Positions 5,147 to 16,037 of a stretch of DNA of 16,097 bases are shown in pieces. The notes below the pieces were generated by a model, which saw nothing but the letters and a program-made list of their open reading frames with translations, searched no databases and was not told the origin of the DNA. A program made the position numbers and the translations under genes. Origin of the DNA: a virus; UHGV virus genome UHGV-1827629. One strand, given 5' to 3'. How positions within the stretch are numbered: position 1 is the stretch's first letter; the number at the start of each line of letters is the position of its first letter.

Positions 5147-5851
5147 ATGAAAACATTCGCAGATCGACTCAACGCGGCTATGAGAGCCGCAGGCATATCC
5201 CAAGGGCAGCTGGCTGAGAAAGTCGGCATATCTCAACCTGCAATTCAGAAAATGACATCAGGCAAAACCACAGGCAGCCGTAAGATGGTTGAGCTTGCTC
5301 ATGCATTGAACGTGCGTCCGGAATGGCTCAGTTCGGGCATAGGCTCAATGCAGGACGAAGGACGCAAGGACTCCGCTATCCCACCAGAATCGGAATGGGG
5401 TAAAGTTGACGCTTGGGATAGCAAAACAGATCTGCCAGATGACGAGGTCGAAGTGCCATATCTGAAAGACATAGAACTTGCGTGTGGTGATGGTTCCTGC
5501 TTGGAAGATGACTATAACGGATTCAAACTTCGTTTTGCGAAGTCTACCCTTCGTAAGGTGGGAGCCCAGAAAGATAGCGTGCTGTGCTTCCCGGCATCAG
5601 GAAATAGCATGGAGCCCATGATCCCGGAAGGGACGACGGTCGCCATCAACACGAACGACAAAAAGATCGTTGATGGCAAGGTTTATGCAATAAGCCAGGA
5701 CGGATGGAAAAGGCTAAAATCCATTTATCGTGTGAGTCCTACCCGCATCGTGATTCGCAGCTTCAACAGTGAAGAGTATCCTGATGAAGAAGCGGATATC
5801 GAGAGCGTAGAGATTATTGGTCGCATGTTCTGGACATCTACTATCTGGTAA
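5147..5851 (+). CDS. cI: CI-like phage repressor (N-terminal HTH, C-terminal S24 LexA-like peptidase domain)
   Basis: HTH motif QGQLAEKVGISQPAIQKM; C-terminal GNSMEPMIPEGTTVAINT...WKRLK is the S24 Ser/Lys signature; divergent from cro across OR; no SD and ATG close to the putative -10. Confidence 0.85.
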   Translation: MKTFADRLNAAMRAAGISQGQLAEKVGISQPAIQKMTSGKTTGSRKMVELAHALNVRPEWLSSGIGSMQDEGRKDSAIPPESEWGKVDAWDSKTDLPDDEVEVPYLKDIELACGDGSCLEDDYNGFKLRFAKSTLRKVGAQKDSVLCFPASGNSMEPMIPEGTTVAINTNDKKIVDGKVYAISQDGWKRLKSIYRVSPTRIVIRSFNSEEYPDEEADIESVEIIGRMFWTSTIW

Positions 5852-5865
5852 TCAAGAGGGAAGGG

Positions 5866-6555
5866 ATGAAATTAGAACTAATAGCATTATCTTTACTGGC
5901 TTTAACTACGAACGCAATCGGCTCTAGCACCCTGAGCTGCGATTACGCTAAGTCGGACATCAGTAATGGAGCTAATGCTCCAATGATTCCTAGCGGAAAA
6001 GGCACTGTCGAATTTGATGGAAAATCCTTTAAAGCCACACGTCCAAATGGTGGTGTGATCATTTCACCAATAATCAGTGAACAAAAAAATGGAATGCTTT
6101 TTCTTGACGACAAGACAAAAGTGTTCGCGGCAAGCCTTTCTAAAACTGATTTCGCTATCTCTGACCGAATTGCTCGAATTACTGAGCAATGGGCCAACTG
6201 CATTGATGTTAGTCCATCGCCGAACAATTCAGATAACGACAAACCGGCAACTGCCTGGAAATATAGGTCTCTCACGAAGCAGGAGATAAATGCTGTTGAG
6301 GCAGCAGTGAAAGACCAATTGAAGGATCCAGAAAGTGCCAGATTCAAGCACTCTAAGTTTGTGAGCAACGGGAAAGGCGCTTACTGCGGCCTGGTTAATT
6401 CCAAAAACTCATATGGCGGCTATGCTGGAAACACTCCTTTCATGGTCATGCTTATCAACAATGGCAAACCTCACGCTGGCTTTATTGGTATGGGCGGAGA
6501 TGATGCCGAGACCCTGTCAACGCTATCCGTCTGCAAAGACAGTGGTTATTTCTAA
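5866..6555 (+). CDS. Secreted (signal-peptide) protein of unknown function, 229 aa, 4 Cys; moron in the rexAB-equivalent slot
   Basis: N-terminus MKLELIALSLLALTTNAIG-SS is a typical Sec signal peptide (AxG cleavage site, not a canonical lipobox); SD GAGGGAAGGG before ATG; visibly more AT-rich than flanks with rare Leu/Ile codons; followed by an intrinsic terminator. Confidence 0.65.
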   Translation: MKLELIALSLLALTTNAIGSSTLSCDYAKSDISNGANAPMIPSGKGTVEFDGKSFKATRPNGGVIISPIISEQKNGMLFLDDKTKVFAASLSKTDFAISDRIARITEQWANCIDVSPSPNNSDNDKPATAWKYRSLTKQEINAVEAAVKDQLKDPESARFKHSKFVSNGKGAYCGLVNSKNSYGGYAGNTPFMVMLINNGKPHAGFIGMGGDDAETLSTLSVCKDSGYF

Positions 6556-6573
6556 ACCCCACCTTGATTGAAA

Positions 6574-6596
6574 GCCCCGCATTGCGGGGTTTTTTA
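6574..6596 (+). terminator. Rho-independent terminator ending the cI-moron transcript
   Basis: GCCCCGC-ATT-GCGGGGT hairpin followed by a T-run at 6590-6596, 19 nt after the moron stop codon. Confidence 0.75.
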
Positions 6597-6660
6597 TTGC
6601 CAGAAATCCCCCCACGCCACATTTTTTACAAAAATAAATTCATTTAGCTATCAGTGCATT

Positions 6661-6720
6661 ATAACTTATGTGATGATAATTATAAATTAGGTTATTGCCA
6701 TCACTCATAACTAAGGTTAT
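6661..6720. promoter_or_regulatory. OL: three operators ATAACTTATGTGAT (6661-6674), ATAAATTAGGTTAT (6682-6695), ATAACTAAGGTTAT (6707-6720), inverted relative to OR
   Basis: Reverse complements fit the OR consensus ATAACCTnAGTTAT; spacing 21 and 25 bp; positioned as in lambda between the cI operon terminator and the leftward early operon. Confidence 0.7.
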
Positions 6721-6723
6721 CTT
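6695..6723 (+). promoter_or_regulatory. Candidate pL (-35 TTGCCA 6695-6700, 17-bp spacer, -10 TATCTT 6718-6723)
   Basis: Sigma70-like hexamers with canonical spacing, overlapped by OL sites 1 and 2. Inference only. Confidence 0.5.
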
Positions 6724-7349
6724 TAATCCATCGAAACGAAACATCGACAGCTGAGCGAAGTTAGCCAGCGGCGGACAGCAAGTCGCCTGCTTCTTTAACA
6801 AATCAGACTGAGTGACAGGCAAGCCGTAGCTCTCCTGGCAAAAAGAAATGGCACCCGATGGGATCGAGGTAAGCACTGAGTCCGTATGCGTACGGTAGGT
6901 GTAGAGGACCACGCTGCGATGAGCTGATAAGTCACTCAATTTGAAGCGCTCCGATGATGGGGCGCTGATTCAACTTAGAGGAGTGATTCCAATGAAGAAC
7001 TAAAGCGGACAGACCGCAGCCTAAAGGCAATGCAGCAGTAATGATGCCGCCCTGAGTCGCCGAATGGCGAGCCTGTGTAGTGATGGGTCAAGGTTCTTAT
7101 ATCAAAACAAGCTCCGGTAAAGCAGCGCGAACGCCAGACGCGCACCGGTTATGAGCGGCGATGAGCGACAAGGTCTCAAGGGCATGTGCGCGGCCACTGC
7201 GAGAGTGTGGCGAAGTTTACCAGCAGCTCTTTGCGAGGGGCTGACGGTAAACAAAAAGAGGAGTGTGTATGGCAGATAAAAAAACGGCGCCACTACTGCT
7301 TAACGTAGACGCCAGCGAGGTACTTACTCAGACCGGGGAGCTTTTAAAG

Positions 7350-7571
7350 TTACTTGAACTTCCAGCCAGTTCCTTTCAGGGAATTCCTGAGCATGTCGTC
7401 GATCTGTTTTTTGACCGTGTCCGTGGCCTGATTGACAACATCGTCCTTAGTGATTTCTCGACCACAGTCAGCACAACTGACGCCGGTGAAATTTGTCTCA
7501 AAGTCAAAATCATCGGGCTGGTTGAACATCTCACTTCCGCAGTCAGGGCACACGGTCCGCATGGTTTGCAT
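7350..7571 (-). CDS. Small zinc-ribbon protein (73 aa; CPDCG...CADCG)
   Basis: Two CxxCG knuckles 22 residues apart; AAAGGA SD 7 nt before ATG (cat 7569-7571); by my hand count this frame is more coding-like than the overlapping + frame. The + ORF 7269-7610 is an unresolved alternative. Confidence 0.5.
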   Translation of the reverse strand: MQTMRTVCPDCGSEMFNQPDDFDFETNFTGVSCADCGREITKDDVVNQATDTVKKQIDDMLRNSLKGTGWKFK

Positions 7572-7829
7572 GAATATATCCTTTCTACTGTTGGGGAGAT
7601 TAAAGAGTAAGCGATTTCTTGCTGTTGGGGAATAGCGGGAAAGCGCGCGCCGGGCGCGGATAAATACCCCGGCACTAACTGGAATGTTTTGGGCTGGCAG
7701 ACGGTTATCAGCTAGTTGGTGAGGTAATGGCTCACCAAGGCGACGACGGCCTTCCCTGCTGCTTGAAAGCGGGGAGCCAGCACCAAAACATTTCTCCCGC
7801 ATCAGCGGGTAACGACAGAGGGTAAGGCT

Positions 7830-8105
7830 ATGAAAACAAGTAGCGGACAAGAGATTTTAAAGGGATTCAATGTTCGTGATATCTCTGCTGATTATGACGA
7901 GCCAAGGTTTGATGTTTTGTTTGTCCACGATGATGGCAAATGCCGGTATTCAAACGATGTTTTTGGTTCTGAGCAAGAAGCCATCAGTTACGCAGAAACA
8001 TGTAACGCCAGCACAGCAGACGATGAATGCTGGGACTACTACCAGCACTCTTCAAGCAGCGCCGACTGGAAGCTGATTCATCACATTGAAGCTAAAGCCG
8101 CCTAA
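7830..8105 (+). CDS. Hypothetical early protein (91 aa, acidic, Cys-containing)
   Basis: SD AGAGGGTAAGG before ATG at 7830; stop codon lies in the loop of an intrinsic terminator. Confidence 0.55.
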   Translation: MKTSSGQEILKGFNVRDISADYDEPRFDVLFVHDDGKCRYSNDVFGSEQEAISYAETCNASTADDECWDYYQHSSSSADWKLIHHIEAKAA

Positions 8106-8586: not shown

Positions 8587-8656
8587 CCACCCTATTCAAC
8601 CGATCGGCCTGGCATTACGCGGGCGAGTTCTGCACATCCAAATTTCAGGAGAAACC

Positions 8657-9628
8657 ATGAGCGAAGTAACGGACTTAACTGTCATCGAAATCAAGCCGGA
8701 ACAGGCCCCAGTGCTTTACGTAGCGGGCGGCCTTGACGCGTACCTTGAGCAAATCCGCCAGGCTGTAAACGAAGTGCCGGACCTGTCCACGAAGAAAGGC
8801 CGTGACCGTGTTGCCTCTCTGGCAGCGCAGGTGTCCCGCAGCAAGACGGCAATCGAAAAGCCGGGCCGTGAGTACCTGAAGCGCCTGAAAGAGGCTGTGC
8901 GTCCGGCTGAGGCCGAAATTAAGCGATTCGTTGATGCCTGCGACGAGCTGCGCGATGCGACCCGCCGCCCACTCACCGAATGGGAAGCCGAGCAGGAACG
9001 CATTAAGGCTGAAGAAGCCATGAACGCGATGCACGCCGAAGCGCTGGAGATGAACATCAGGTTCGATCAGGAGCTGGCTGCCAAGTTCGAAGCGGACCAC
9101 GAAATGGCTCTACTGATGAACAAGGATTTTGACCGTGACCGCGAAGAGCAGCGCCGTCTGGCGGAACAGGCTCAGCGTGAACGTGATGAGCGGCTGAAAC
9201 AGGAAGCGGCAGAACAAGCCCGCCGCGATGCCGAAGCGAAGCACAAAGCGGAGATTGAAGCCGCAGCGCGCCGTGAAGCTGAAGAGAAAGCACGTGCAGA
9301 GCTGGCTGAACGCCAGCGCGTCGAAGCGGAACAGCGTACAGCTCGCGAGAAGCAGGAAGCAGAAGCCCGGGCAGAACGCGAAAAAGCCGCGGCGGTTGAA
9401 GCCGAGCGCCTGAAGGCCAAACAGGCCGAAGATGCCCGCCTGGCCGAAGAGAAGCGCCTCGCCGATGAGCAGGCAAAGCGTGAAGCTGACGTTAAGCACC
9501 GCAAGACGGTCGGCACCAACATCGTTAACGCGCTCACCAGCCACACCAGCTTAACCCGCGAACAGGCTATCGAAGTGCTTACCGCTCTGAAAGATGACCT
9601 CATCCCCTGCGCGAAAATTCATTACTGA
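8657..9628 (+). CDS. Large charged coiled-coil protein (323 aa) with an extended Glu/Arg/Lys/Ala-rich central helix; function unknown
   Basis: SD CAGGAG before ATG at 8657; ~150-residue central stretch of AEEKARAELAERQRVEAEQRTAREKQEAEARAEREK type; conserved-looking globular ends. Confidence 0.7.
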   Translation: MSEVTDLTVIEIKPEQAPVLYVAGGLDAYLEQIRQAVNEVPDLSTKKGRDRVASLAAQVSRSKTAIEKPGREYLKRLKEAVRPAEAEIKRFVDACDELRDATRRPLTEWEAEQERIKAEEAMNAMHAEALEMNIRFDQELAAKFEADHEMALLMNKDFDRDREEQRRLAEQAQRERDERLKQEAAEQARRDAEAKHKAEIEAAARREAEEKARAELAERQRVEAEQRTAREKQEAEARAEREKAAAVEAERLKAKQAEDARLAEEKRLADEQAKREADVKHRKTVGTNIVNALTSHTSLTREQAIEVLTALKDDLIPCAKIHY

Positions 9629-9635
9629 GGCAACC

Positions 9636-9761
9636 ATGAACGCATACCTCACTTACGACCGAATCGAAGATCGGCGCTGGGTTGAGCAGCAGCTCACCGA
9701 CGAGAAGGAGAAGTGGATCGACGACCGGGCGAAAGAACTGATCGCCATGTTCCCGAAATAG
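9636..9761 (+). CDS. gam: Gam-like (RecBCD inhibitor) N-terminal fragment, 41 aa, apparently truncated
   Basis: MNAYLTYDRIEDRRWVEQQL resembles the start of lambda GamS ([22 protein letters not shown], from memory); GAGG SD; sits immediately upstream of bet as gam does in lambda, but stops after 41 codons. Confidence 0.4.
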   Translation: MNAYLTYDRIEDRRWVEQQLTDEKEKWIDDRAKELIAMFPK

Positions 9762-9820: not shown

Positions 9821-10666
9821 ATGGCAAACGAATTAACAATCACAGCGAAGTCGCTTCAGGAGATAGGCGTCGACGTCTCCACATGGAGTGCACTGAAGAA
9901 CAGCATCTACCCTGGCGCCAAAGACGAATCGGTAATGATGGCGCTTGACTACTGCCGCGCCCGCCAGCTGGATCCGTTGCTCAAACCTGTCCACCTCGTT
10001 CCGATGTACGTTAAAGACTCGAAAACAGGTAAAGGTGACTGGCGCGACGTGGTCATGCCGGGCATCGGGCTTTACCGCATTCAGGCAGACCGCTCTGGCG
10101 ATTATGCCGGGGCACGGGAGCCTGAGTTCGGGCCCGATGTAACTCAGACGCTTACTGGTGTCGAGGTGACCTTCCCTCAGTGGTGCAAATACACCGTTTT
10201 CAAGCGCATGCCCAGCGGCGAGATCGTCGAGTTCAGCGCCAAAGAATACTGGATTGAAAACTATGCCACCGGCGGCAGCGAAACAACGGCGCCGAATGCG
10301 ATGTGGAAAAAGCGCCCATACGGACAGCTGGCGAAATGCGCGGAAGCCCAGGCGTTGCGTAAGGCATGGCCTGAGATTGGACAGCAGCCTACCGCCGAAG
10401 AAATGGAAGGAAAATCACTGGATGTTGATATCCGTGACGTCACGCCGCGCAGCACAACAGAATCACTTCCACCAGCAGCAAGCGAAGAAACGCTTCAGGC
10501 GATAACCGATCTCTTAACATCGCTGAATAAAGACTGGGAGCAAGACTTCCTCCCAGTTTGCAGCGACATCTTCAAACGGCCAATTCTTGAGGCGTCAGAC
10601 CTCACTGAAGAAGAGGCACAGAAAGGGTTCAACTTCCTTCAGAAAAAAGCTAAGGCGGCAGCATGA
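9821..10666 (+). CDS. bet: Bet/Red-beta family single-strand annealing protein
   Basis: C-terminus [55 protein letters not shown] matches lambda Bet's C-terminus from memory; N-terminus divergent but same pattern; stop overlaps exo start (ATGA); SD GAGGGG before ATG 9821. Confidence 0.8.
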
Positions 10667-11343
10667 CACCAGAAATTATCTTTGCCCGCACCGGTGTTGA
10701 CGTAACCACTATCCAACAGGGCGATGAGGCGTGGCACCGGCTGCGCCTCGGCGTCATTACTGCCTCAGAAGTACACAACGTCATATCCAAGCCGAGATCG
10801 GGTAAGAAGTGGACAGATATGAAAATGTCCTACTTCCACACGCTGCTCGCGGAGGTATGCACAGGCGTGGCGCCAGAGGTTAACGCCAAGGCGCTGGCCT
10901 GGGGCAAGCAGTACGAGGAAGACGCCCGCACCCTCTTCGAGTTCACAACTGACGTGAAAGTCACGGAGTCTCCGATCCTGTTCCGTGACGAGAGCATGCG
11001 CACCGCGTGCTCCCCTGACGGCCTATGCAGTAACGGGTTCGGCCTTGAGCTTAAGTGCCCTTTCACCTCTCGCGATTTCATGAAGTTCCGCCTTGGCGGT
11101 TTCGAAGCCATCAAGTCTGCGTACATGGCCCAGGTGCAGTACAGCATGTGGGTTACCGGAAAAGACGCCTGGTTCTTTGCCAACTACGACCCGCGCATGA
11201 AACGCGAAGGTATTCACCACGTCGTCGTTGAGCGGGATCCACAGTACATGACCGATTTCAACGAAATGGTGCCGGATTTCATTGAGAAGATGGACGAAGC
11301 GCTGGCGGAGATCGGCTTCACGTTCGGAGAGCAGTGGAAATGA
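10663..11343 (+). CDS. exo: Lambda-type 5'-3' exonuclease (Red-alpha / YqaJ family)
   Basis: Near full-length similarity to lambda Exo as I recall it (MTP.II..RTG.DV...[63 protein letters not shown]...ALAEIGF.FGEQW). Confidence 0.95.
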
Positions 11344-11440: not shown

Positions 11441-11659
11441 ATGACATCTGAAACAGACAACGCCATCCGCGCCGCCTGCCGTCGCTGCACCGAGAAAATC
11501 CAGCAGGCCATGCGCAAGAAGCCAAAGCCTAACTGGAACGAAACGGTGCCTCCCATCATCAACAAGCATCATAAGAAAATTGAAGCTCTGGGAGTTAGCC
11601 TCCTGGAGTTCGTCGTATACACAGGGCGGCTTAATCGCCGCTTCGGAGCAGAACAATGA
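11441..11659 (+). CDS. Hypothetical protein (72 aa), first gene of a coupled three-gene cassette
   Basis: Internal ATG of track ORF 11282-11659 (MTSETDNAIRAACRRC...); stop overlaps the next ATG as ATGA. Confidence 0.5.
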   Translation: MTSETDNAIRAACRRCTEKIQQAMRKKPKPNWNETVPPIINKHHKKIEALGVSLLEFVVYTGRLNRRFGAEQ

Positions 11660-12522
11660 CAACAAAAAAATGGGGTCATAACGAGCTTGCTCATGACCTT
11701 GCAGAGCATTTGCGCCAGAACACAGCGCGCATCTGCTGGGAGGATATGCAGCTTGGGCCCGCCGGAACGTGCCGACCTGATGTCTACTCTATTGCTCACA
11801 GCTACAGCAAGTTCTGCCCAGTCGTCTATGAGGTTAAAGTCAGCGTAGGTGATTTCCGGGCTGACGTTACAGCAGGCAAATACACCAAATACTTCAGCTA
11901 TGCAGGTGGCGTTGTTTTTGCAGTTCCTGAAGGCATGCTCAAGAAAAGCGACATCCCAGATGGTTGTGGCTTGATGATCCGGAAGGAAACTGGATGGCAT
12001 ACCCTCAAGGGGCCGACAATGCGCCAGATTGATAACCTACCTCGCGACGCCTGGATGAAGTTGCTTATGGATGGCATGAAGCGACAGGCAGAGAGAACCC
12101 AAATAAAAAATCGCGTAATCAACACCTACCTCAGCGAACAAAAACTTATGAAGCGACATGGCAGCGAAATCGCCGATCTTGTTTGTCGAGCGCATCGGTC
12201 GAAGGAGCGGCTTGAGCAGCAGGTTAGGGATAACGATGAAAGGCTGAAGAACCTGCGCCAGGAAAGTGAGGAGGAGATGCAACGCCGACGTAAGCGCCGG
12301 GAGGAATCGGAGGAAAGGTTAACCGACGCTCAGCAAGGTCTGGCGAAAGCACTTGGCCTCGACCCGAATGTCCCTATGTATGTTCTGACAAGGACGCTAT
12401 GGGAAGCAATGCGCCGACTGACCGAGGATGAAGAGATAAAGAGGTTGCGAGGAATATTGTACAACCTTGAGCGCACGCTGAATGACGGTCTGAAACCATT
12501 ACCCGGGGAGAAAGCCGCATGA
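11656..12522 (+). CDS. PD-(D/E)XK nuclease-fold protein (MmcB-like N-terminal domain) with a charged coiled-coil C-terminal half
   Basis: Motif RPDVYSIAHSYSKFCPVVYEVKVS gives a D...EVK PD-(D/E)XK signature; C-terminal ~140 residues are Arg/Glu/Lys-rich coiled coil; ATGA overlaps at both ends. Confidence 0.65.
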   Translation: MTTKKWGHNELAHDLAEHLRQNTARICWEDMQLGPAGTCRPDVYSIAHSYSKFCPVVYEVKVSVGDFRADVTAGKYTKYFSYAGGVVFAVPEGMLKKSDIPDGCGLMIRKETGWHTLKGPTMRQIDNLPRDAWMKLLMDGMKRQAERTQIKNRVINTYLSEQKLMKRHGSEIADLVCRAHRSKERLEQQVRDNDERLKNLRQESEEEMQRRRKRREESEERLTDAQQGLAKALGLDPNVPMYVLTRTLWEAMRRLTEDEEIKRLRGILYNLERTLNDGLKPLPGEKAA

Positions 12523-14649: not shown

Positions 14650-14997
14650 ATGGAAGAAATAATTTTCACCCGCGACGAGGCGGCGAACTTCCTGCGCGTC
14701 AGTGAAGGGACTGTGGCCGAATGGATAAAGTCTGGAAGACTCGCCGCTACCCGCAAAAATCCCGCTAAAAAGAAAAGTCCATATCTCATCTGCAAGACAG
14801 ATTGCATTGCAGCGTTGAAGAACACGATCCACAATCAGCCGGTGAATGCGGTTGATGTGCAGGAGGGTAAAGCATGTCAATCAAACAACGTGCCGGTACG
14901 TGGCACTGCGACTTCGTTACGCCTGGTGGCGTCAGAATTAGACGGTCTCTTGGCACAACGGACAAAAGGCAAGCGCAGGAACTCCATGATCAGCTAA
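14650..14997 (+). CDS. xis: Excisionase (AlpA/Xis-type HTH), 116 aa
   Basis: [36 protein letters not shown] is an excisionase-type HTH; GGAG SD before ATG 14650; immediately upstream of and overlapping int by 124 nt in another frame. The track's 14494 start is probably an extension. Confidence 0.6.
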
Positions 14998-16037
14998 AAG
15001 CTGAAGCGTGGCGTGTAGACAAGATGGGGGAATATAAGGCGCACACTTTTGATGAAGCATGTGTGCGCTGGCTGAACGAGAAGCAGCATAAGAAGAGCCT
15101 GGACGATGATAAAAGCCGGATCGGATTCTGGCTTATGCATTTCCGGGGAATGGACCTGTCCGAGATTACAGAGGATAAAATTCTCTCGGCCGCCAGTGGA
15201 ATGGTAAACAGGAAGCACAGACTTAATTGGGAGTCACGGAGGGATAGTTGCCTCAGGATGGGTAAGCCTGTTCCCGAGTACAAGGAAAAGCCAGCAGCAC
15301 AGGCAACCAGAACAACACACCTTGCTTTCATTCGGGCTTTGCTCAGATGTGCGGCTAACGAATGGCGATGGATAGCCAAAGCGCCGAATATCAAATGCCC
15401 TGTTCCAAAGAACAAACGTATTCGATGGCTGACAAAAGATGAGGCGCAGTCATTAATACGTGAATTGCCTGACCACTTTAAGCCGGTGGTTGTTTTTGCT
15501 CTGGCAACGGGATTGAGGCGATCCAACATAACGGATCTGGAATGGTCTCAGATAGACATGCAGAGGAAGGTTGCGTGGATACACCCAGAGGATGCAAAAG
15601 CAGGCAGGGCGATTGGGGTCGCCCTTAATGATTCTGCATGCAGGGTATTACGCGATCAGGTAGGAAAGCACAATCGGTGGGTGTTCGTTCACACTGAATC
15701 ATCTGTTCGTCCGGATGGAACCAGGACTAAAGAGGTCAGGAAGATGAGGAGCGATGCTAACACAGCGTGGAGGGCTGCGTTAAGAAGAGCCGGAATTGAA
15801 AACTTCCGTTTCCATGATTTGCGGCACACCTGGGCAAGCTGGCTTGTGCAGTCCGGCGTTCCGTTATCAGCGCTTCAGGAAATGGGAGGTTGGGAGAGCA
15901 TTGAAATGGTTCAGCGCTATGCTCACTTAGCACCGAATCACCTGACGCAACATGCGATGCAAATTGACTCATTTCTGGCAGGAAATGGCACAAATATGGC
16001 ACAAGGCACGTTTGCAGACTTGGTGAATATCGCGTGA
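14874..16037 (+). CDS. int: Tyrosine site-specific integrase (P22/P4-like)
   Basis: N-terminal arm-binding motif [31 protein letters not shown]; C-terminal catalytic region [39 protein letters not shown] with the R..H.R.Y residues; strong SD AGGAGGG; ends 16 bp before the tRNA 3' end. Confidence 0.95.

Follow-up and report, generated by a model that had tools for sequence, protein, structure and literature searches.

An Agt/Mog family gene with a predicted long charged helix at the head of the recombination module in virus genome UHGV-1827629

Lambda Red, RecET and related recombination systems have a central part in the mosaicism of phage genomes and in recombineering technology. In the GenBank record of phage phi80 (Lula), such a module is headed by agt, annotated as 'anti-toxin for Gam; Mog (modifier of Gam)', and gamL, annotated as 'host RecBCD/SbcCD enzymes inhibitor; toxic without Mog'. 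The gene agt was reportedly named by Rotman et al. in 2012, and the suppression of Gam toxicity by its product is known from the GenBank annotation alone. For the family that heads such modules across thousands of phage lineages there is no Pfam entry, no structure and hardly any literature. A 2025 survey of lambdoid recombination (Rec) modules (PMC12315714) describes GamL, and the sections of it that were searched do not mention agt. Here we analyze the gene at positions 8657-9628 of a 16,097-nucleotide stretch of virus genome UHGV-1827629 (hereafter, the window), whose product can be assigned to the Agt/Mog family on the basis of sequence, architecture and synteny. This copy is an ordinary member of a named, mechanistically uncharacterised family.

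Identity and coding status of the gene

The gene (8657..9628, plus strand) is an ATG-initiated open reading frame (ORF) encoding 323 amino acids (aa) followed by a stop codon. It is preceded by the Shine-Dalgarno sequence AGGAG (8647..8651, plus strand), which lies 5 nucleotides (nt) before the ATG and is conserved in phi80. The product matches PHROG 1376, a group of unknown function, over its full length (E=2.8e-99; residues 1-323 aligned to positions 1-362 of the profile), and it is the ortholog of phi80 Agt/Mog (PHI80_40, AFV29176.1, 322 aa), with an overall identity of 80% (BLASTP E=7e-153). In a tblastn search of GenBank phages, residues 1-158 were 98.7% identical to phi80 agt, and over residues 1-175 the identity is approximately 99%. 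The likeness to phi80 extends to gene position (agt-gamL-recT-exo), length and a three-part architecture; the differences are in the last ~40 residues, which belong to another sequence type with 22% identity, and in the neighbouring RecT, which is also of a different sequence type in phi80. Members of PHROG 1376 are further found as gene 33 of Shigella phage Sf6 and its homologs in HK544, mEp234 and HF4s, which share the architecture, have a length of 322 aa and likewise precede the recombination genes in the pL operon. Overall, the Sf6 gp33 type has approximately 51% identity to the window protein, and 39% in the top tblastn segment.

In the large protein collection, nothing comes closer than a 97% identical 'hypothetical protein' of Enterobacter hormaechei, and the best 120 matches are all unnamed or 'hypothetical', none of them with a Pfam domain. 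Pfam, NCBIfam and PADLOC hold no family for the protein, and scans of 100 diverse and 10 unusually long relatives against the same three resources detected neither a family nor a fused domain.

The ORF is a genuine gene under purifying selection. In the comparison with phi80, codons 1-160 have a ratio of nonsynonymous to synonymous substitution rates (dN/dS) of 0.019, and codons 161-240 one of 0.28. Since the substitutions concentrate at third codon positions of the plus-strand frame (43 of 58 in codons 1-240), this is the coding frame. The 323-aa protein described by the sequence-only reading thus holds, with its ATG start, ribosome-binding site and low dN/dS. Five overlapping ORFs on the minus strand (8675-9100, 8716-9057, 9057-9476, 9110-9544 and 9172-9603; 113-144 aa each) are spurious, as that reading had also suspected, because the composition bias of the gene depletes antisense stop codons. 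The sense triplets TTA, CTA and TCA, which are stops on the opposite strand, have a density of 5.3 per kb in the gene's central segment versus 37.4 per kb over the window as a whole, and purines make up 64% of the sense strand of this segment. The cause had been sought in repetitive DNA, and here the evidence goes the other way: Tandem Repeats Finder reported no tandem repeats in the DNA of the gene, and direct repeats are limited to three families of 16-19 nt, all short and imperfect. The bias is at the amino-acid and codon level and is not a matter of repetition.

Protein architecture and family conservation

We built an AlphaFold2 model of the full protein on a 100-sequence alignment. Its mean predicted local distance difference test (pLDDT) score is 89.4, and its predicted template modelling (pTM) score of 0.35 is as expected of a rod. 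The modelled helices span residues 14-20, 27-36, 46-154, 162-296 and 301-312, with a low-confidence break at 155-161, a turn after residue 296 and a non-helical tail at 313-323. The protein can accordingly be described as three parts. The N-terminal conserved module (residues 1-155; 8657..9121, plus strand) consists of two short predicted helices followed by helix 46-154. It is followed by a length-variable charged segment of the ER/K single-alpha-helix type (residues 161-285; 9137..9511, plus strand), whose predicted helix runs on to residue 296. The C-terminal conserved mini-domain (residues ~281-323; 9497..9625, plus strand) comprises a basic H-R-K motif, a helix, a turn of the G-L-T-E type, a second helix and a tail ending in I-x-Y. 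Modelled alone, the C-terminal 57 residues (pLDDT 94.7, pTM 0.71) begin with the end of the long helix, turn over four residues, and continue as a helix of 12 residues and an extended tail of 11. The protein contains no hydrophobic stretch or membrane anchor.

The charged segment is 125 aa long, of which 75% are E, R, K or A (alanine contributes 31 residues), 55% are charged and approximately 7% are hydrophobic, with a net charge of -1. The sequence-only reading had envisaged globular ends joined by a charged helix of about 150 residues, acting as a single alpha-helix or a coiled-coil spacer. The estimate of length was close, given the 125-aa segment and the predicted helix 162-296, and between the two structural options the tests favour a single alpha-helix. 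Opposite-charge pairs at i/i+3 and i/i+4 number 57, compared with 37.4 +/- 4.6 in 2000 shuffles (z=4.25), and hydrophobic residues occupy a fraction of 0.12-0.25 of the heptad a/d positions in residues 162-266 versus 0.5-0.75 in parts of residues 8-98. A canonical coiled coil was rejected for the charged segment on this low a/d fraction, as there is no hydrophobic heptad core. In the model, helix 162-296 is continuous with pLDDT above 90, and these residues may form a stable monomeric helix in solution. The description of the ends as globular fits only in part: the N-terminus is predicted to be mostly one long helix (46-154) after ~45 residues with two short helices.

Nothing significant in Pfam, NCBIfam, PADLOC, the PDB sequence searches or Foldseek places the protein in a well-characterised structural family with an unrelated role. 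Searches of PDB sequences with the single sequence and with full-length, N-domain and C-domain profiles returned only low-complexity helices or non-significant matches, and for the middle segment every match was to a protein with a long charged helix, Zuotin and myosin VI among them. Foldseek comparison of the full model with PDB and BFVD gave nothing significant; the BFVD matches were uncharacterised homologs only.

The family is large. Using the N-terminal 160 residues as a phmmer query against 1.84 billion representatives, we found 4230 clusters at E<=1e-3, of which 1236 reach E<=1e-10, counted as cluster representatives at 50% identity. The three-part plan is common to about 100 such representatives, nearly all of which end in [IV]-x-[YF]. 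In nearly all full-length representatives, the N-module stands at the very N-terminus, with a core at approximately residues 38-112 in which D42, T45, G48, R49, S54, K63, G70, K78, D96, R103, P105 and E110 are nearly invariant. It is followed by a stretch of ~60-240 residues rich in E, R, K, A, Q and D. The C-terminal consensus is approximately A-D-x-x-H-R-x-x-[IV]-N-x-x-A-L-x-x-L-V-x-x-G-L-T-E-E-Q-A-K-x-[IV]-[VI]-x-A-I-A-K-G-x-[IV]-P-x-[VL]-x-I-x-Y and ends exactly at the C-terminus. The mini-domain exists in at least two sequence types, and the type in the window differs from that of phi80.

Among relatives with at least 94% identity in the end modules, in-frame insertions and deletions (indels) of 10-51 aa are confined to the charged segment, giving total lengths of 272-334 aa. 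The modal length of 322-323 aa is nevertheless kept in 71 of 82 close loci, and Sf6 gp33 also has 322 aa at 51% identity. Since the indels are confined to this segment while a modal length is retained, the charged segment behaves as a spacer that has a preferred length and tolerates change. The divergence from phi80 Agt also starts inside it, which puts a mosaic junction within the region coding for the charged helix. This junction lies at ~9330-9500 (codons ~225-280), with sequence approximately 99% identical to phi80 upstream and the different C-terminal type after it, and the indels of relatives cluster in the same region. The biased DNA may serve as a recombination-permissive linker for the exchange of end modules.

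Two decayed family members were observed. The locus L061 carries a frameshifted agt of 251 aa (6001-6756). The 258-aa representative P0134 starts like Agt and has an end that closely resembles, by unaligned comparison, the C-terminus of the window exonuclease; it may be the product of a deletion that removed gamL and recT.

Genomic context and proposed role

The window takes in the immunity and early-left genes of a lambdoid phage or prophage. Its minus strand carries a replication O-like gene, cII and cro, and its plus strand carries, in order, cI (5147-5851), small genes of unknown function together with a DUF1482 gene, the agt-like gene, gamL, recT, exo, further small genes and int. The agt-like gene opens the recombination module, with 7 nt between it and gamL. 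The proposed placement in the early-left operon is therefore borne out by its location between cI and gamL-recT-exo-int, in the leftward early operon. The recT gene encodes a single-strand annealing protein of the RecT family (9821..10666, plus strand, with the start taken from the gene call in L272), exo encodes a YqaJ/lambda-Exo-type exonuclease (10663..11343, plus strand), and int encodes the integrase (14874-16037, plus strand).

Across the family, the gene is found on the same strand as the recombination module and at its promoter-proximal end, whichever annealing protein (RecT/Bet, Erf or Sak4) the module contains. It lies upstream of GamL-RecT-Exo in the window, phi80 and Mulock, and upstream of GamL-Bet-like-Exo or GamL-unknown-Exo in other loci. 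Elsewhere it is followed by a 65-aa ORF, Arf, an Erf-like protein and SSB, by a small 'recombinase' PHROG and Erf, by Erf and an exonuclease (Pseudomonas phage phiAH14a), or by cIII-kil-...-Erf-SSB-Abc2 without GamL (Sf6-type phages; HF4s and a Yersinia phage are arranged similarly). In metagenomic viruses whose proteins are 30-40% identical, the genes after agt include Sak4-SSB, SSB, NinB/Orf, ExoVIII-like and EndoVII-like genes. A gene for PHROG 1366 (unknown function, ~300 aa) also recurs downstream of Agt-like genes (locus L102, 7309-8190; locus L106, 7134-8087) and adjoins an ExoVIII-like nuclease gene in one locus; it may encode an unrecognised annealing protein.

We lean, if only slightly, towards the reading that Agt is an accessory protein of the Rec module that works as an adaptor or tether. 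The gene would be transcribed from pL as the first of the module, and its product would be an elongated, almost all-alpha-helical rod made of an N-module of ~120-155 aa, a helix of ~125-135 residues and a C-terminal mini-domain of ~40 aa. If fully helical, the single alpha-helix would measure ~19-20 nm and form a semi-rigid spacer of variable length between the end modules. Among close relatives, both C-terminal types and identical N-modules are found upstream of GamL-type and Erf-type modules alike, and there is therefore no co-variation with the phage recombination proteins. We infer two-partner binding by the end modules, with partners that stay unchanged when the phage recombination genes are swapped; these are most likely host proteins or DNA, because no co-variation with phage partners is seen. 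Through such partners, Agt would modulate the branch of phage recombination that processes ends and counters nucleases, and one visible effect of this would be that GamL toxicity is relieved in phi80.

A parallel exists in phages of Firmicutes, where Mu-Gam-like end-binding proteins, DUF1351, DUF2483 or Gp157 fill the slot upstream of the annealing module, and the authors who described this argue for an analogous function (PMC8093625). The parallel therefore points to the control of DNA ends and host nucleases. A more specific version of the accessory role, which we put forward tentatively and consider rather doubtful as a whole, is that the Agt family is a widespread core accessory of Rec modules in Proteobacteria, the counterpart of the DUF1351/Gp157/Mu-Gam slot. 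The rod would act as a tether of tens of nm whose ends dock to host factors or DNA ends and whose helix sets the working distance, so tuning the disabling of RecBCD/SbcCD and the hand-over of ends to the annealing protein, with GamL relief as a by-product.

Several observations weigh against an accessory role in recombination. The end modules have no significant fold match in PDB sequence searches, Foldseek or profile comparisons, and a literature search for agt, Mog, Gam antitoxin and phrog_1376 found no other paper. In about half of the distant loci the downstream genes are unrecognisable. In Sf6-like phages, cIII, kil and small ORFs stand between agt and erf, so that membership in the Rec module is positional only, and synteny within one long operon does not prove a shared function.

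In a first alternative, Agt is a host-interference protein of the kil/cIII kind, directed at the envelope, division or nucleoid, with no role in recombination and an incidental Rec neighbourhood. We consider this improbable, although it accounts for a number of observations. The gene does stand among the host-takeover genes of the pL operon, cIII and kil come directly after it in Sf6 and the Yersinia phage, and a cell-division inhibitor gene precedes it in Mulock. The independence of the end modules from the phage Rec genes would fit a host target, and several records label the family 'TolA' or 'cell envelope biogenesis protein'. However, the TolA label rests on the charged helix alone. There is no hydrophobic anchor, and no TolA or other Pfam domain was detected in 100 members. 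Very divergent phages (30-40% identity), Pseudomonas phages and metagenomic viruses among them, again have the gene in the slot ahead of an annealing protein, SSB or exonuclease, and the protein has no PADLOC match and no similarity to Kil or CIII. The sequence-only reading had likewise put the gene where lambda has host-interference genes of the kil/cIII type, but what stands there is the ortholog of phi80 agt/Mog heading a recombination module, and tblastn with the phi80, Sf6 and CobraSix proteins found no Kil, CIII or N homologs in the window.

A second alternative follows the phi80 annotation literally, making Agt a dedicated antitoxin that does no more than bind and neutralise the GamL encoded 7 nt downstream, in a two-gene toxin-antitoxin pair. 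Besides the GenBank labels ('anti-toxin for Gam' and 'gamL: toxic without Mog'), the tightness of the arrangement speaks for it: in 60 of 80 close relatives from IMG/VR, a full-length gamL starts 7 nt past the agt stop codon, and whenever the two occur together agt immediately precedes gamL on the same strand. Seen from gamL, the association is looser. An Agt N-domain is encoded upstream in only 64 of the 148 IMG/VR GamL loci that have enough upstream sequence, leaving 84 without it, and within +/-3 kb in 68 of all 160. The loci without Agt include some whose GamL is 97-99% identical to that of phi80, and the isolated Enterobacter phage CobraSix (locus L112, NC_071003, 5992-8157) has kil-gamL-recT-exo and no agt, which indicates that GamL can be tolerated without Agt in a viable phage. 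Conversely, 20 of the 80 close Agt relatives stand ahead of Erf-type modules without GamL, as do the genes of Sf6, HF4s, the Yersinia phage and Pseudomonas phage phiAH14a, and the C-terminal type of Agt is independent of the type or presence of GamL. The obligatory linkage expected of a type II toxin-antitoxin pair is found in neither direction. On this gene distribution, agt and gamL are frequent but separable neighbours, and a strict toxin-antitoxin relation is not supported. We regard the dedicated-antitoxin explanation as distinctly unlikely, and a broader activity, of which the relief of Gam toxicity in phi80 would be one outcome, gives the better account.

We leave a small likelihood to some explanation other than an accessory role, host interference or an antitoxin. 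The reading of the ORF as a chance one, held open by low-complexity purine-rich sequence in the same way as the antisense ORFs, is already effectively refuted: such composition does leave several frames open and does produce a weak match to a tape-measure PHROG (E=0.0017), but a ribosome-binding site, a dN/dS of 0.019 with substitutions clustered at third positions of the plus-strand frame, thousands of homologs with conserved end modules that are not of low complexity, and the annotation of the gene in phi80 and Sf6 all stand against it.

If Agt does tune anti-RecBCD activity or tether recombination proteins, this may explain how hosts tolerate Gam-type inhibitors during infection, and it may help to improve recombineering systems in which Gam is toxic. 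The Agt family is a reasonable experimental target.

Neighbouring genes and comparison with known systems

The gamL gene of the window (9636..9761, plus strand) encodes the host-nuclease inhibitor GamL as a stub of 41 aa that corresponds to positions 1-41 of the 89 in NF033500. Relative to phi80, 115 nt of gamL are missing at the junction 9760|9761, which creates the stop codon. A truncated gamL was found in none of the 160 other GamL loci. Four other metagenome contigs (human gut) encode an identical Agt protein and are 100% identical to the window wherever they overlap it. Contigs among them end near the junction, one exactly at window position 9760 and one at 9756; another passes the junction with 'TG' and then a poly-G run, and a scaffold bridges it with 66 N's followed by 55 nt of genuine gamL 3' sequence that is absent in the window. 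Because other assemblies of the identical phage break at the same junction, the truncation is most likely an assembly artefact. A scenario in which agt was retained while gamL decayed was dropped, since the junction coincides with these assembly breakpoints.

Three other places in the window deserve mention. Directly downstream of cI, a plus-strand gene (5866-6555) encodes a 229-aa protein that matches only PHROGs of unknown function (2578 and 2320) and has no PADLOC match. Lambda carries rexA/rexB immediately downstream of cI, and the 229-aa gene is a candidate for expression from the lysogen. Downstream of exo, a plus-strand gene (11656-12522) encodes a 288-aa protein with a weak match to the 'DNA repair protein' PHROG 5429, and in one related contig a gene of this type has a weak MmcB-like Pfam match; a ZorA match (E=0.02) is not credible. 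Within the leftward operon, an ORF on the opposite strand (7350-7850, minus strand) encodes a zinc-ribbon-like CxxC...CxxC protein at 7350-7570, MQTMRTVCPDCGSE...CADCGREI.... The features of this region in RefSeq phi80 and some E. coli prophage records include a 'zf-TFIIB domain-containing protein', and phi80 has at the equivalent place a pair of mutually antisense ORFs, PHI80_43/44.

Compared with the known systems of the early-left operon, Agt resembles lambda Kil and CIII in its location close to gam, and differs from them in size (323 aa versus ~45-70 aa), in architecture and in the lack of any sequence similarity to the phi80, CobraSix and Sf6 proteins. With TolA it shares a long helical middle rich in Ala, Glu and Lys. 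Identity with TolA was rejected, as the window protein lacks an N-terminal membrane anchor and neither it nor 100 relatives have a Pfam TolA domain, and the TolA label in phage records is a low-complexity artefact.

With DUF1351 (PF07083), Sipho_Gp157, DUF2483 and Mu-Gam-like genes, Agt shares the niche directly upstream of erf-ssb, sak4 or recT modules; homology to them is unsupported. For DUF1351, none of 100 full-length family members matched at E<=0.01, and one of 21 N-domains matched at E=0.0047 (17.1 bits against a cutoff of 27.8). Homology was rejected when hhalign gave a probability of 3.4% against a verified DUF1351 alignment of genuine proteins, which had been obtained through Enterococcus phage LG62.

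The C-terminal mini-domain has weak likenesses to several small folds. Its hairpin was aligned by Foldseek, as the best match, with the N-terminal helix-turn-helix shape of HU (1hue; 30 columns, root-mean-square deviation of 1.5, E=2.0, probability 0.63), and hhalign gave 19.5% against an approximate HU/IHF reference set. A PDB hmmsearch with the C-terminal profile ranked the UBA domain of LATS2 (E=0.018) and domain III of RuvA (E=0.11-1). For readings as an HU/IHF-like, UBA-like or RuvA-domain-III-like domain, these are resemblances with non-significant scores.

For the charged segment, the closest known counterparts are the ER/K single-alpha-helix domains of the myosin VI/X, Zuotin and caldesmon type, with which it shares a high content of E, R and K, the lack of a hydrophobic heptad core, an enrichment of i/i+4 ion pairs and a long, unbroken predicted helix. 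This is an analogy of composition and structure rather than homology, and the Agt segment stands apart from these domains in being unusually rich in alanine and in belonging to a phage protein.

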